Shown piece by piece: positions 10,083 through 37,111 of a DNA stretch of 64,000 bases. The translations under genes were made by a program, and so were the position numbers. Each line of letters opens with the position of its first letter. Within the stretch, counting starts at the first letter, position 1. The stretch covers positions 16,332-80,331 of the forward strand of contig JAFYUU010000001.1 in assembly GCA_017549445.1 (NCBI GenBank), given 5' to 3'. Source of the stretch: Alphaproteobacteria bacterium (GTDB taxonomy: Bacteria; Pseudomonadota; Alphaproteobacteria; Rs-D84). The notes beneath the pieces are model-generated. The model was given only the letters and a program-made list of their open reading frames with translations, did not search any database and was not told the DNA's origin.

Positions 10083-10610
10083 TTATTTTACATTCTTCAT
10101 ACACCGACGACGGGCATAAATCCAACTGATTAAATATAGACCAACACCACACACAATGCAAATGTCCGCAAAATTAAATGCAGGATAATGCCAACCGCCA
10201 ATATGAAAATCCAAGAAATCAACAACCGCACCAAAACGGATTCTATCTATTAAATTGCCAATCGCACCACCGGCAATCAAGGCCAATGGAACACGTTCGT
10301 AGTTTGCACATCTGCAAAACAGATAATATAAAATTCCGCCAATTATCCCGCCAGTCGCAAATATCAATATAATCGGCAGGTATTCCCCCAATGCATTAAA
10401 CATTGAAAACGCAGTGCCAAAATTCCACGTGAATACTATGTTGAAAAAGTTTGTGACATATGCCATCAAGTATGGATTTGGAACCAATTCCCACGCATTG
10501 CCAACTGGAAACCAAGAACCTGTTATCAGGAATAACAAATATCCCTTGGTAAATAAATCAAGAACAATTACACCAAAAATTATCCCTAATATTGATAATG
10601 TGCGTTTCAT
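10083..10610 (-). CDS. lspA: Lipoprotein signal peptidase (signal peptidase II)
   Basis: Motifs FTWNFGTAFSMF and IGGAIGNLIDRIRFGAVVDFLDF...FNFADICI. The start MKRTLSILG at 10610 (GGGGAA RBS) is preferred over the ORF-track start at 10649. Confidence 0.9.
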   Translation of the reverse strand: MKRTLSILGIIFGVIVLDLFTKGYLLFLITGSWFPVGNAWELVPNPYLMAYVTNFFNIVFTWNFGTAFSMFNALGEYLPIILIFATGGIIGGILYYLFCRCANYERVPLALIAGGAIGNLIDRIRFGAVVDFLDFHIGGWHYPAFNFADICIVCGVGLYLISWIYARRRCMKNVK

Positions 10611-10675
10611 TTTTCTATTCCCCAATTTTGTATGCAGAAAATATAACAATATCAGGCAATAAAAGCAAATAAAAT

Positions 10676-31808: not shown

Positions 31809-31882
31809 TGGGGTGTCGTCTAATGGTAGGACAAGAGATTTTGGTTCTCTTTATCATGGTTCGAATCCGTGCGCCCCAACCA
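31809..31882 (+). tRNA. tRNA-Gln (anticodon UUG), CCA end encoded
   Basis: Hand-folded: acceptor TGGGGTG/CGCCCCA, anticodon stem AGAGA/TCTCT with loop TTTTGGT, T-arm CATGG-TTCGAAT-CCGTG, discriminator A plus CCA. Confidence 0.9.
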
Positions 31883-31891
31883 GAAATTAAA

Positions 31892-31915
31892 TCGCCCTTG
31901 TAGGGCGGTTTTTTG
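31892..31915 (+). terminator. Rho-independent terminator after tRNA-Gln
   Basis: Stem CGCCC/GGGCG with a TTGTA loop, followed by GTTTTTTG. Confidence 0.7.
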
Positions 31916-31992
31916 TTGATTTTGGTGGGGCTTTTCGGCATCATCTGTATCAGTGGGGGACTGGGGACGAGCAACAAACGGATAATCGGGTT

Positions 31993-32778
31993 ATGGACAC
32001 GTTGAAAATTACGCTAAATTCGTCTTGGTTACGGTTGCACAAATCCATCGCAACACCAGTCAATTTCTTGTTCAAATCTAAACACGAACGTGAACAGCAC
32101 AGATACGAAGAATGTTTATTCCTGACACAATCTGGGAATAATTTAATCTATACAACCCTGACGGGGCGGTATGCCGTCCAACAATGGGAAGCGGTCGATT
32201 TCGACCTGCCATGGCCCATAACCATCAACACGGCAACTGTGCCGTATAAAATAAAAAGCAATCGGGCATGTTTGGAAATCCCGTCTTGCACAGGTTCGGC
32301 ATTAGAAACATTCTATGACACAAATCGCCCTGCGTTTATCAAAGGTTCTGATTTACAAACAACGATTATCGCAATTGATGGGCGACGTGCAAACATTGAA
32401 TTTATCAAGCCATATGGGCGGTTAGACAAACTGAATCAGATTATTAAAACGGTTGAGGAAAATCCCTTTACCGATTCCAATCAATATCAATGGTTCACAC
32501 GGGACAACGGGGGTAAAATTGACTATTGCGAAATCAGCAAAATTTATAAAACTGTCCTGGGGCAAGACGTCTTCGAATACGAATATCTGCGTTATCCAGG
32601 TGACACGATAATAATGCAACGCATCAATGAACTGCACAAAGCGGTGGACCGTTATGGCACGCTGGAACGAGTGGTAGAAAATGGATTTGATGAATTCACG
32701 TATCGTTTGCCAATCGCATTATTCAAGAAGGCAACACAAACTGTTATCTGGCAAGGCATTCCCGTGCGGGTTAGATAA
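31993..32778 (+). CDS. Hypothetical protein (261 aa)
   Basis: Long ORF in an otherwise unoccupied interval. No signal peptide, TM helix or recognisable motif, and the RBS is weak. Confidence 0.5.
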   Translation: MDTLKITLNSSWLRLHKSIATPVNFLFKSKHEREQHRYEECLFLTQSGNNLIYTTLTGRYAVQQWEAVDFDLPWPITINTATVPYKIKSNRACLEIPSCTGSALETFYDTNRPAFIKGSDLQTTIIAIDGRRANIEFIKPYGRLDKLNQIIKTVEENPFTDSNQYQWFTRDNGGKIDYCEISKIYKTVLGQDVFEYEYLRYPGDTIIMQRINELHKAVDRYGTLERVVENGFDEFTYRLPIALFKKATQTVIWQGIPVRVR

Positions 32779-32793
32779 TTTATTTAGAAGATA

Positions 32794-33717
32794 CTAGTTG
32801 AACAAAATACTGTTGGGGCCTTGAAAATCCTTGCCCAGTAGGTTTACCGTCCCTACACTTTCCGCATGATAACGACCACCAATAAAGCCACTGCCGTGTG
32901 TCATTACCCCCATAGTATCACCAGAAACATTGAAAACGCCACCACCGGAATTGCCACTCCAGGCCTGACAATCAGTCAAGATACCATCGCTACTGTATCT
33001 GCAACGCGATTCCTTCAGATTTGCAGTGTCTCGCAATATATCGTTACGATAAGCAGAATCTAGTTGACGGATAAATGATGCACCATCAGGCATATACACA
33101 CCAAAGGTAGATGCTTCAGATGATATTTCTTTAATCTCGGGCGAGGCGGGATTGTGTTCTTTTAAATATTGGACATATTTCTCTTTAAGTTCCCAAATTT
33201 CTGTGTCACTCATCACCCTTAACGCACCGTGACCAATCACACGAACGTCATAATTGACGATGAACGAACCACGGGGTGCACGTGCAATTTGAACATGCGG
33301 AACTTCATCGGATTCTGGAACAGTATACACAGCCCAATCCCCCAGAAAATCCATAACATTATCGCCCAACTTGTGCTTGTGAACAGCGATTATTTTACCA
33401 CTGGACGTTTTTATATTGATTGTAGCATACGGTATGTTTTTGCGATCCACTGCACAATGTCTGGCTGTAATCATGTATAATTTTTTTTGATGCCGGACAA
33501 TTGTTCCTGTGCAATACACAAAATTACCATTTTCAATCAATGCCACAACCGAACTATACGGCACTGTCGAACGTTGACTGGCAGACACATAACAACGTCT
33601 ATCAATGGTGTATTTGTCTGGATCGGAACAGCCATCAGTGGCACCCGCATGTAAAATGCCTGGACATAGCAATACAAAAAGCATACACCGAATATTCACG
33701 GTATCATATTTTATCAT
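32794..33717 (-). CDS. Secreted trypsin-like serine protease (S1 family)
   Basis: Signal peptide (CMLFVLLCPGILHAGA). Catalytic His context ITARHC and catalytic Ser context WSGNSGGGVF. Confidence 0.75.
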   Translation of the reverse strand: MIKYDTVNIRCMLFVLLCPGILHAGATDGCSDPDKYTIDRRCYVSASQRSTVPYSSVVALIENGNFVYCTGTIVRHQKKLYMITARHCAVDRKNIPYATINIKTSSGKIIAVHKHKLGDNVMDFLGDWAVYTVPESDEVPHVQIARAPRGSFIVNYDVRVIGHGALRVMSDTEIWELKEKYVQYLKEHNPASPEIKEISSEASTFGVYMPDGASFIRQLDSAYRNDILRDTANLKESRCRYSSDGILTDCQAWSGNSGGGVFNVSGDTMGVMTHGSGFIGGRYHAESVGTVNLLGKDFQGPNSILFN

Positions 33718-33763
33718 ACTTTGAAGAATTTATAAACCTTATTTCTTTTTTTATGATTATGTG

Positions 33764-33883
33764 AAGCAAAACAGCATTGTTGGTGCATGCAGTTTGGTAA
33801 ATAAAAAGTTCTTTGATGAAAATGTTATTCTGGTTGGGATACCTGCCCAGGTTAAAAAGCACGGCATCCAATGGGAAAGATGA
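33764..33883 (+). pseudogene. Remnant of the 3' end of a left-handed beta-helix (hexapeptide-repeat) acetyltransferase gene
   Basis: The frame reads KQNSIVGACSLVNKKFFDENVILVGIPAQVKKHGIQWER-stop. This matches the usual C-terminus of LbH acetyltransferases (..S.IGAGSVVTKD.P.N.V..G.PA..IK). A stop codon lies 13 codons upstream, and there is no start codon or N-terminal part. Confidence 0.4.
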
Positions 33884-33954
33884 TTTATAAAAATCCAAGG
33901 CAATAAAACTTGTCTTGCGGGGTGGGGATAAATGTTTCATACTGATAGGCAGAG

Positions 33955-35280
33955 ATGAAAAAATATTGTATCCCGATTTTCTTGATTTGTATCACGACTT
34001 TCTGTAAAGCAAAACAGATTGAGATGACACCAGTTCAGGCAATTAAAACCGCTGGTGAATTTATTGATGTGGGGGACATGGAAAATGCCTGGCAGATTTT
34101 AACACTGATGCCAGAAACGAACAATCAGGCAATCGAGATTGAAAGAAAATTCTTGAAAGCACAAATCCTGCAACAGCAAGGCGACCCACAGGGGGCCATA
34201 AAATTATATCAACAGATTTTAGATAAAAATCCAGAACTGGCACGGGTGCGGTTCGAGTTGGCAGTATGCTATATGCAAACAAAACAATGGCAACGGGCCG
34301 ATTGGCACCTGCGGTTGGCAATGGCGGACGATGCACTGGGGACTGATGCAAAACAGGTCATGAACGCATACAGATATATTGTGCGACAAAACAAACGGTG
34401 GAACGTATGGTTTAATGTTGGACTGGCCCCCGATAACAACATAAACAATTCCGTTGCTGGACAAGAATGCGTGTCCACAATCGTGGGGCCTGTGTGCAAC
34501 AGATTGAACAAGCCGGAATCTAGCATCGGATACAATGCAACAGTGGGTGGTAATCACGAATTTGTCTTATCTGGTCGGTGGCGATGGAAGTCACAGGCAA
34601 ATTTAGACACAAACATTTATCATAAACATAAATTCGATGAATTACATATTTCTGCCCAGACGGGCCCAAGATTTATCTGGGAAAACGGGGACGTGTGGTT
34701 AGCAGGAACAATCGGACGCAGATGGTATGGTTGGGAAAGATATAACTGGTATGCAGGGGCAAAAATTGCAGGGCAATTTGATTTATCAAATAAACTGGGG
34801 TTGGGGTTGAATCTGCAATTCACAAACAACAAATATGATTTATATGATGAATTCTTTTCAGGACAAACCTATTCGGCAAACATACATACAATGTACGCAT
34901 TTAATTCCAGTATCTACACCGTATTCAAGACAGGAATAATTCGGGAAAATGCACGTAGTGATATGTATTCTTATACGCAACCATACGTGGCGGTGGGTAT
35001 GGGGGTGCAATTACCATACGGATTTAATGTTTATGCAGAACCTGCGGTGTATCTGTCAAAGTATGACGCACCACAATGGACAATACAAGATAACAACTTT
35101 GCACAAATCACCGAACGAAATCAGACATGGCGATATATGTTGGCGATTTCCAACAATAATATCAGGATTTGGAATACTGTGCCGATGATTACATTTGCAT
35201 ACACGAAACGTGATTCTAATATCTGGCAAAGACAATATGAAAAAGCATCGATTGCAATCACACTGACCCAGCGTTTTTAG
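33955..35280 (+). CDS. Slam-like outer-membrane protein (TPR N-domain plus DUF560-type beta-barrel)
   Basis: Signal peptide, then TPR-like helices (AIKLYQQILDKNPELARVRFELAVCYMQTKQWQRADWHLRLA). The C-terminal ~280 aa show an alternating beta-strand pattern (WNVWFNVGLAPDNNINN...) ending in the aromatic terminus TLTQRF. Confidence 0.6.
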   Translation: MKKYCIPIFLICITTFCKAKQIEMTPVQAIKTAGEFIDVGDMENAWQILTLMPETNNQAIEIERKFLKAQILQQQGDPQGAIKLYQQILDKNPELARVRFELAVCYMQTKQWQRADWHLRLAMADDALGTDAKQVMNAYRYIVRQNKRWNVWFNVGLAPDNNINNSVAGQECVSTIVGPVCNRLNKPESSIGYNATVGGNHEFVLSGRWRWKSQANLDTNIYHKHKFDELHISAQTGPRFIWENGDVWLAGTIGRRWYGWERYNWYAGAKIAGQFDLSNKLGLGLNLQFTNNKYDLYDEFFSGQTYSANIHTMYAFNSSIYTVFKTGIIRENARSDMYSYTQPYVAVGMGVQLPYGFNVYAEPAVYLSKYDAPQWTIQDNNFAQITERNQTWRYMLAISNNNIRIWNTVPMITFAYTKRDSNIWQRQYEKASIAITLTQRF

Positions 35281-35308
35281 TTGACAATTATTTTTACTGT
35301 ATTATAAT
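35281..35308 (+). promoter_or_regulatory. Second perfect-consensus sigma-70 promoter (TTGACA-16-TATAAT) directly upstream of the 35319 ATG
   Basis: TTGACA 35281-35286, 16-nt spacer, TATAAT 35303-35308. The ATG begins 11 nt after the -10 box and there is no SD sequence. The 7-bp inverted repeat TTGACAA (35281-35287) / TTGTCAA (35309-35315) brackets the promoter. Confidence 0.6.
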
Positions 35309-35318
35309 TTGTCAAAAA

Positions 35319-36281
35319 ATGAAAACCAATGCTAATCTTTCCAACCCCCACATCACGCCACACAGTGGTCCACGCCAACGCAATTTGGCGGCCGAGATTG
35401 CACGCAGCAATATCAAATATCTGAAACAGATAATCAACACCACGGACGAAAGGGGAAGAGAAGCATTGGCACCATGTCTTAGCCCCGAGATTTGGGTGAT
35501 GGCAAACAGTTCTTCGCCACAGGAAGTGATAAAAAAACTGGAACTGGCCATAAAACTGGATAAATACAGACCAAGGGATTTGTTTATCGAAATGTTTGCC
35601 ATTCATACAGATTTGGAATATGTCGGGGGCGAATTTTCAACATATAATCCACATCTGGCAAAAATGATGCGAAACATGGTCGCACCGCAACAGATTCTGG
35701 ACGAAATATTGATGGATATTCACACCAGTTGCCTGCAAGTTGCCGAACAATATGCGTTGGATTGGCAATATGTTATACGCAAAAATCAAATTATGATGAT
35801 GCATGCAAAAAAGCAGGGAAAAACGGGCAATAAAGACGCAATGGAACTGTTCTTGGATTCGATAACACAAGATATGCTGGCACTGTATGGTATTCCAGGA
35901 AATTTGCTGGCCGTCAAGGTTGTGGACAGTTGGAATCAGGTGCCCAAACACATGAGAAATAATCTGGATAAACAGGCATATGCTATTTTAACAACGTTCA
36001 AAGGCACTTCTTATGCTGAAATTCATATTCACAGGCAACGTATCTATAACAATAGTCGTGAAACAGACAAGTTCTGTCGGGTAATATCGGCACTGGCACA
36101 CGAATTTGGGCATTACATTGATGAAATTCAACCAAATCATGGGGCACTGGGCGAACAAAAGGCATATCTGGGAAACCTGTTCGATGACGTGGCGGACTAT
36201 GAAGACAAGCCAACCGAAGAAAGTTCCGCATGTATAGGAGAAATAGTTTATCGAAAACTGAGCCAATCAAAGTTAAGATAA
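35319..36281 (+). CDS. Hypothetical protein with C-terminal HExxH zinc-metalloprotease-like motif
   Basis: 320 aa with no signal peptide. The motif ISALAHEFGHYIDE lies ~60 aa from the C-terminus. Confidence 0.55.
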   Translation: MKTNANLSNPHITPHSGPRQRNLAAEIARSNIKYLKQIINTTDERGREALAPCLSPEIWVMANSSSPQEVIKKLELAIKLDKYRPRDLFIEMFAIHTDLEYVGGEFSTYNPHLAKMMRNMVAPQQILDEILMDIHTSCLQVAEQYALDWQYVIRKNQIMMMHAKKQGKTGNKDAMELFLDSITQDMLALYGIPGNLLAVKVVDSWNQVPKHMRNNLDKQAYAILTTFKGTSYAEIHIHRQRIYNNSRETDKFCRVISALAHEFGHYIDEIQPNHGALGEQKAYLGNLFDDVADYEDKPTEESSACIGEIVYRKLSQSKLR

Positions 36282-37036: not shown

Positions 37037-37111
37037 TGGCAACCCCAACGGGAATTGAACCCGTGTTACCAGAATGAGAATCTGATGTCCTAACCGCTAG
37101 ACGATGGGGTC
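37037..37111 (-). tRNA. tRNA-Glu (anticodon CUC as read), CCA end encoded
   Basis: Reverse strand: acceptor GACCCCA/TGGGGTT, the D-arm GTCTAGCGGTTAGGAC typical of tRNA-Glu, anticodon stem TCAGA/TCTGG with loop TTCTCAT, T-arm ACGGG-TTCAATT-CCCGT. Confidence 0.85.

Follow-up and report, generated by a model that had tools for sequence, protein, structure and literature searches.

A 64,000-nucleotide stretch of DNA from an uncultured alphaproteobacterium (assembly GCA_017549445.1, contig JAFYUU010000001.1; hereafter the window) encodes a surface lipoprotein assembly modulator (Slam), an outer-membrane protein of the type 11 secretion system (T11SS), next to a divergently transcribed S1 serine protease. 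The original prediction proposed that Slam exports this protease to the cell surface, which would make the enzyme a new class of cargo. Sequence comparison and a structural model suggest instead that the cargo is very probably a lipoprotein of TbpB-like fold encoded on a different contig (C18) of the same genome, the genes beside Slam being unrelated accessory genes.

The assembly carrying the window amounts to 763 kb in 19 contigs and is 64% complete. Proteins 50-57% identical to its Slam come from ~0.9-Mb metagenome-assembled genomes (MAGs) recovered from rumen, from sheep ileum and from further gut-type or animal samples; they carry the labels Candidatus Enterousia, Alphaproteobacteria or ‘uncultured Rickettsiales’. 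The host is itself an uncultured, Enterousia-like alphaproteobacterium of the gut or rumen, with a genome of ~0.9 Mb. Genome-wide comparisons cover 41 genomes, namely that of the window (G000) and 40 relatives, 29 of the 41 being at least 90% complete and at most 5% contaminated. Related Slam loci were fetched from the relatives (20) and from public genomes (15), and 33 distinct loci were counted.

On its sequence, the 441-residue protein (33955-35280, plus strand) is a genuine Slam/DUF560 outer-membrane protein of the type 11 secretion family, and the layout proposed for it earlier, a signal peptide followed by TPR helices and a β-barrel ending in an aromatic residue, is borne out by profile searches and by the sequence itself. 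The DUF560 family (SlipAM, PF04575) aligns to residues 149-441 (34399-35277) over its entire profile (1-288 of 288), scoring 103.4 bits against a cut-off of 22 (E 2.1e-29), and a scan of the whole genome recovers the same match as the sole DUF560 gene. TPR_Slam (PF24575; 40.0 bits, cut-off 35.2) covers residues 62-116 (34138-34302), a region also matched by several generic TPR families, and TPR_19 scores 40.4 bits against 25. Read directly from the sequence, the N-terminus is a Sec-type signal of 19 residues (MKKYCIPIFLICITTFCKA, followed by KQ; 33955-34011) with no lipobox, and the C-terminus (...TLTQRF) places an aromatic Phe last, as is typical of outer-membrane proteins. Several of the 280 homologues found are named ‘surface lipoprotein assembly modifier’ or ‘DUF560 domain-containing protein’ by NCBI, and a DUF560 gene is present in 22 of the 41 genomes; the identity of Slam is not new, as public annotation already makes this call in sister genomes. 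In L047 and L048, public gene callers place the start of this Slam at Met24 (418 residues), cutting off the signal peptide; the 441-residue start is the one that fits an outer-membrane protein and its homologues. Searching PDB sequences with Slam returned TPR proteins only and no Slam structure, and a crude amphipathicity count left the strands of the barrel unresolved.

Clustering the open reading frames (ORFs) next to Slam in the related loci brought out a recurrent neighbour family, which we label c1. In 22 of the 33 loci a same-strand c1 gene is found no more than 600 nt from Slam, directly upstream in 20, often in two to four tandem copies, and two of the loci without an adjacent c1 end at a contig edge. 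Enterousia-like MAGs hold 1-6 c1 matches per genome (members include L016:5862-7850, L018:9791-14166 and L051:3496-5923). All full-length c1 proteins listed carry a lipobox and most a Gly-rich linker (e.g. MKKxxILTSVLALAAC-GGGSGG); they share the conserved blocks GLxYSDFG, FxGGY, FTGxAxG and WYDV, end mostly in ...FGGK or a close variant, and have a variable N-terminal domain.

The association of Slam with c1 is also seen at the level of whole genomes. Both are present in 20 of the 41, Slam alone in two, c1 alone in two and neither in 17 (odds ratio (OR) 85; Fisher p=1.7e-7, a value that overstates independence because the genomes are related, although gain and loss are scattered over the Slam tree). 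Within the genus, c1 occurs in all 13 Slam-bearing genomes and is absent from 10 of the 11 Slam-less ones. Three genomes in which no c1 adjoins Slam carry c1 elsewhere, as Neisseria does for Slam1 and its cargo TbpB, LbpB and fHbp, and in one of the three a contig edge removes the upstream flank of Slam. The window’s Slam is nested (support 98/96) among c1-linked Slams, that of relative G003 included.

When the window’s own genome is searched with the c1 profile, one clear member is found (E 1.4e-28): a lipoprotein of 443 residues, encoded outside the window at G000:C18:20751-22082 (minus strand), with a signal peptide and the lipobox MLAGC. Contig C18 is 38.6 kb long with the gene in its middle, and the separation from Slam is therefore real. 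A word-based homologue search with this protein, which is 98% conserved in other samples, returned only two matches because the family diverges so strongly, and the alignment used for folding (18 sequences) was therefore built from Slam-neighbour loci. The resulting AlphaFold2 model, with a predicted local distance difference test score (pLDDT) of 82.4 and a predicted template modelling score (pTM) of 0.76, comprises a disordered tether, a helical domain (residues 31-174), a β handle (residues 176-264) and a C-terminal barrel (residues 274-442). Foldseek comparison of this model with the PDB gave top matches, at a probability of 1.00, that are mostly experimentally known Slam/T11SS cargo: TbpB (4o3w, 3hol, 3v8u), the TbpB C-lobe (5kkx), the NHBA C-domain (6cuj), fHbp, the ‘Slam-dependent surface lipoprotein’ PmSLP (9b3e), LbpB (7n88), HphA (8gm3) and HpuA (9mr0). 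The model thus has the layout of effector, pedestal and C-terminal 8-stranded barrel by which T11SS cargo proteins are united (PMC12282271, PMC5449769). Slam genes often adjoin, or are unlinked from, those of their lipoprotein cargo (PMC5449769, PMC12282271, PMC8406197).

We take Slam to be probably functional and infer a pathway in which the c1 lipoprotein would pass through Sec, be lipidated and cleaved by LspA, and then travel to the outer membrane, where Slam would recognise its C-terminal 8-stranded barrel and move the lipoprotein to the cell surface; there the variable helical N-terminal domain would face the host or a partner cell. The signal peptidase II that would mature such cargo is encoded in the window (lspA, 10083-10649, minus strand), its PF01252 match (E 1.6e-32) at G000:C1:26453-26914(-) corresponding to window positions 10122-10583, inside this ORF, and the genome is predicted to encode ~25 proteins with a lipobox.

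The protease gene (32794-33717, minus strand) encodes a secreted or periplasmic S1 enzyme of chymotrypsin fold, 307 residues long. Trypsin_2 matches residues 69-271 (E 2.4e-10; 41.8 bits against 27.6) and Trypsin scores 28 against 20.6, in line with the earlier description of a divergent trypsin-like protease that has a signal peptide but lacks a canonical lipobox, as are the coordinates of the ORF. An alignment of the family (13 homologues, 28-41% identity) reveals invariant His87 (TA[KR]HC), Asp127 (GDWA) and Ser257 (GNSGG), conserved Cys pairs and, at the N-terminus, a conserved hydrophobic segment with an A-x-A, signal-peptidase-I type site (...A|xDxC) and no lipobox. A family profile aligned to PDB trypsins such as Streptomyces trypsin (3i78) over 47-276 of 304 positions, the PDB matches being trypsins and V8-like enzymes. 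A single-sequence AlphaFold2 model of the protease was unusable (pLDDT 32), and we relied on the alignment and domain boundaries instead. The enzyme shares with Streptomyces trypsin 3i78 and with the V8/Spl/exfoliative-toxin-like glutamyl endopeptidases the His/Asp/Ser triad motifs, a Sec signal and a single-domain size. It differs from them in a lineage-specific N-terminal motif, DxCTNPxEYTIDRRCYV, which holds a conserved Cys pair, and in an insertion of ~60-80 residues that separates the fold’s two barrels and that a low-confidence model shows as helical in part; it also belongs to a multi-copy, fast-evolving family confined to some Enterousia-like genomes.

The protease lacks the hallmarks of T11SS cargo. 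Its C-terminus, where an 8-stranded barrel of the Slam-recognition type might have been sought, ends 50 residues past the catalytic Ser257, the normal end of an S1 fold, and the mature protein is a single S1 domain carrying an internal insertion, so that the S1 fold fills almost all of its length and leaves no room for a barrel of at least 110 residues. Profile-profile alignment with hhalign gives a probability of 1.2% for a relation to the c1 cargo profile, and Pfam finds only Trypsin families. Neither is the protease tied to Slam in its distribution: both are present in four of the 41 genomes, Slam alone in 18, the protease family alone in four and neither in 15 (OR 0.83, Fisher p=1), such that four of the eight protease-bearing genomes are without Slam. 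Two of these, G021 and G024, hold seven and three protease-family matches, respectively, with no Slam and no c1; G013 and G023 likewise lack Slam and c1. The window’s genome itself carries five copies of the family, on contigs C1, C5, C12, C15 and C16, the four paralogues of the window protease lying on other contigs than Slam (C5:2371-5091(-), C12:1415-2485(+), C15:111479-112447(-) and C16:1-1166(-)); one paralogue, of 906 residues, has a long Cys-rich, Gly-rich, charged C-terminal extension. The protease-Slam-HExxH arrangement is limited to strains of the same species (97-99% identity), and a tblastn search with three neighbours from the window (protease, HExxH protein and a 261-residue protein) found none adjoining any of the first 20 related Slams. 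Together, the missing barrel, the lack of co-occurrence and the absence of the pairing from 32 of the 33 related loci speak against the proposal that the protease is Slam cargo of a new class.

Several observations weigh against c1 as the cargo. In this genome c1 and Slam are unlinked, and since the assembly is only 64% complete, other cargo genes could exist in the host genome. The family is a diverse group of lipoproteins recognised by no public family model: Pfam at E<=0.01 found no family, TbpBBD included, in ten c1 members, the C18 protein has no match even at E<=1 to TbpB_B_D, lipoprotein C or any other Pfam family, and the c1 profile found no relative among PDB sequences, only Gly-linker noise. 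The cargo assignment draws on the predicted fold together with synteny, and the likeness of c1 to known cargo lies at the level of fold only. The 14-stranded topology of the Slam barrel is a prediction from the full-length PF04575 match. Slam is, moreover, an outlier: of 146 positions with at least 95% conservation among 119 homologues, it deviates at 20 (the others at a median of 1 and a maximum of 11), including Y138A, Y218D, W341T and G407N/F408T, and its terminal branch of 0.79 (median 0.29) is the longest in its clade; such a status could reflect an altered specificity. Finally, a second species (L060, a MAG from sheep rumen) also has S1 genes near its Slam, three of them at 1-4.3 kb upstream, and no c1 adjoins that Slam.

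These last two points bear on the idea that the neighbouring protease, or else the HExxH protein, is a barrel-less enzyme cargo which Slam exports to the surface or the medium. The protease and Slam genes are adjacent and divergent across a spacer of 237 nt, the arrangement is kept in same-species strains, and the protease carries a Sec signal. T11SS can secrete non-lipidated proteins (PMC8406197), and for marine cluster-3 T11SS proteins co-occurrence with barrel cargo is rare (PMC12282271). In the related loci, however, L060 is the only one of 33 with an S1 gene within 5 kb of Slam, and there the S1 genes are set apart from Slam by a tRNA-Lys and by a lipoprotein gene on the opposite strand, with three c1 genes elsewhere in the genome. 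A gene of a small paralogous family (C12:516-1439, with more on C8, C10 and C19) precedes both the C12 protease and the L060 cluster, and this shared partner family suggests a separate protease cassette. By our own estimate, a coincidence like that in L060 is expected at the ~0.3-0.7 level, given several protease loci per ~0.9-Mb genome and a shared preference for tRNA islets. We judged L060 weak as independent support for a Slam-protease link, in view of the separate cassette, the intervening tRNA-Lys and the three c1 genes. With no C-terminal barrel on the protease, no co-occurrence with Slam, four paralogues away from it and no signal peptide on the HExxH protein, export of either protein by Slam appears highly improbable, and the little credence we leave to the protease as cargo is owed mainly to Slam being such an outlier. 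A narrower version holds that Slam shifted its specificity to the neighbouring protease, which is barrel-less and non-lipidated and lacks a canonical targeting barrel; it is suggested by a Slam that is the fastest-evolving of its family yet has a within-species ratio of non-synonymous to synonymous substitution rates (dN/dS) of 0.11, and by the replacement of the adjacent c1 by a protease gene, and we regard it as a very slim prospect.

The protease might also be coupled to Slam without being its cargo, by processing or releasing a surface lipoprotein, as NalP releases LbpB and NHBA in Neisseria, or through a gating of the LapG type. Besides the adjacency in the window and the S1 genes near Slam in L060, this would fit relative G007, in which 1.3 kb separate a c1 gene (C4:73960-75243) from a tandem pair of S1 genes (C4:76518-78244), far from Slam, the only c1-protease adjacency seen. 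Such a role seems very unlikely nonetheless: the protease family occurs in the four genomes without Slam or c1 (G013, G021, G023 and G024), no protease lies near most c1 or Slam loci, no cleavage motif was identified, and the within-species dN/dS of the protease, 0.72 on a basis of only 14 differences, looks more like that of a gene in relaxed or diversifying evolution than like that of a conserved partner. Slam could alternatively be an orphan on its way to loss, relaxed after the adjacent c1 disappeared and exporting nothing, which its deviation at conserved positions, its long terminal branch, the absence of a cargo gene beside it and the loss of Slam from about half of the related genomes would all accommodate. 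Against this stand an intact frame with a full-length Pfam match and an intact cargo-type lipoprotein that is kept in the genome and conserved in other samples. Moreover, strains of the same species differ in Slam by 20 synonymous and nine non-synonymous changes, and the dN/dS of 0.11 indicates that Slam is under purifying selection now (the HExxH gene gives 0.33); we consider an orphan Slam very improbable. The divergence of Slam may stem from co-evolution with a diverged cargo, from past relaxed constraint or from a change of specificity.

The locus itself is a variable islet between two tRNA genes, tRNA-Gln(ttg) at 31809-31882 (plus strand) and tRNA-Glu(ctc) at 37037-37111 (minus strand), both called by ARAGORN. 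In G003, the clearest syntenic relative, the same tRNA-Gln and tRNA-Glu, beside TolC-MarR, flank a 12-kb interval that contains c1-c1-Slam. The simplest reading is that an ancestral c1-Slam module sat in a variable tRNA islet, and that here the adjacent c1 was lost and unrelated accessory genes fill the space; the protease, HExxH and 261-residue protein genes would then hold the place upstream of Slam that c1 genes hold in relatives. The islet is polymorphic within the species, because strain L046 (L046:7853-9530) has three extra genes between tRNA-Gln and the gene for the 261-residue protein, encoding proteins of 200 and 180 residues and an 81-residue GIY-YIG protein, that are absent from the window at 31883-31992. 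The tRNA gene that a Slam or c1-Slam module adjoins differs between species: eight loci have tRNA-Lys(ctt), and tRNA genes for Ser, Thr, Pro and Gln/Glu occur as well (loci L025, L028, L031, L032, L051, L060 and L061 among them), as would fit modules placed repeatedly in variable regions linked to tRNAs. An association of cluster 1 T11SS with tRNA genes and mobile islands has been reported (PMC12282271).

The two remaining islet genes, for an HExxH (AHEFGH) protein of 320 residues (35319-36281, plus strand) and a protein of 261 residues and unknown function (31993-32778, plus strand), are the longest possible ORFs in their frames. The HExxH protein, correctly placed downstream of Slam by the original prediction, has neither a signal peptide nor a hydrophobic N-terminus and no Pfam or NCBIfam match; the 261-residue protein has no signal peptide and no Pfam match. 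The features of Slam, the protease and the HExxH protein exceed chance by far in all three ORFs. We also considered the HExxH and 261-residue proteins as hidden cargo and rejected them, hhalign giving at most 0.3% against the c1 profile. As T11SS cargo is Sec-dependent (PMC8406197) and both proteins are without signal peptides, neither is a cargo candidate. A perfect σ70 promoter, TTGACA-16-TATAAT (35281-35308, plus strand; 12/12 consensus positions in a pattern scan), starts directly past the Slam stop codon and ends 10 nt before the HExxH start, so the HExxH gene can be transcribed independently of Slam; the suggestion that its product is cargo is not sustained, given this promoter of its own and the missing signal peptide. 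A near-perfect promoter also lies on the opposite strand (35315-35287). In the spacer between the protease and Slam, an open stretch at 33790-33885 (plus strand) reads ...IVGACSLVNKKFFDENVILVGIPAQVKKHGIQWER*, which we take to resemble the C-terminal tail of a hexapeptide-repeat acetyltransferase and which may be a gene remnant of a rearrangement; Pfam found no match for this intergenic peptide of 37 residues.

TbpB-fold lipoproteins classically partner TonB-dependent receptors. A search for the receptor barrel PF00593 found none in the 41 genomes, all of this order, with positive controls, which excludes for the c1 lipoproteins a TbpB-like part as co-receptors in uptake through TonB. If fHbp, NHBA, PmSLP and NilC are a guide, the variable N-terminal domains of c1 more likely serve to bind molecules of the host or of a partner cell. 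Slam and TbpB-fold lipoproteins in the absence of TonB-dependent receptors would offer a handle on the host interaction of uncultured symbionts with reduced genomes, and models built from c1 would improve the annotation of these very small genomes. These side results, an unannotated probable cargo family in a clade free of TonB-dependent receptors and an unusually diverged Slam, are of modest interest. If the C18 lipoprotein is the cargo, gene adjacency by itself pointed to the wrong protein in this genome.

The closest known systems are Slam1 of Neisseria meningitidis, whose cargo proteins TbpB, LbpB and fHbp are encoded elsewhere in the genome, and the related DUF560 type 11 systems Slam2/HpuA, NilB/NilC, HrpB/HrpC and the Slam/PmSLP pair of Pasteurella multocida. 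The system described here differs from these in its host, a ~0.9-Mb uncultured gut or rumen alphaproteobacterium, and in a candidate cargo that has a helical N-terminal domain and carries neither the Pfam TbpBBD nor the lipoprotein-C signature of known cargo. Unlike TbpB, LbpB, HpuA and hemophilin, which are co-receptors in TonB-dependent uptake, c1 belongs to a clade in which no TonB-dependent receptor was found, and the window Slam is unusually diverged at positions conserved in its family. In common with these systems, it has a signal peptide, a periplasmic TPR domain, a full-length DUF560/SlipAM barrel and an aromatic C-terminus, and its candidate cargo is a lipoprotein with a predicted TbpB-like fold of handle and 8-stranded barrel, usually with a flexible Gly-rich linker. 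Like cluster 1 T11SS (PMC12282271), the locus lies in a tRNA-associated variable region and, as for Neisseria Slam1, the putative cargo gene is unlinked here, though adjacent to Slam in most relatives.

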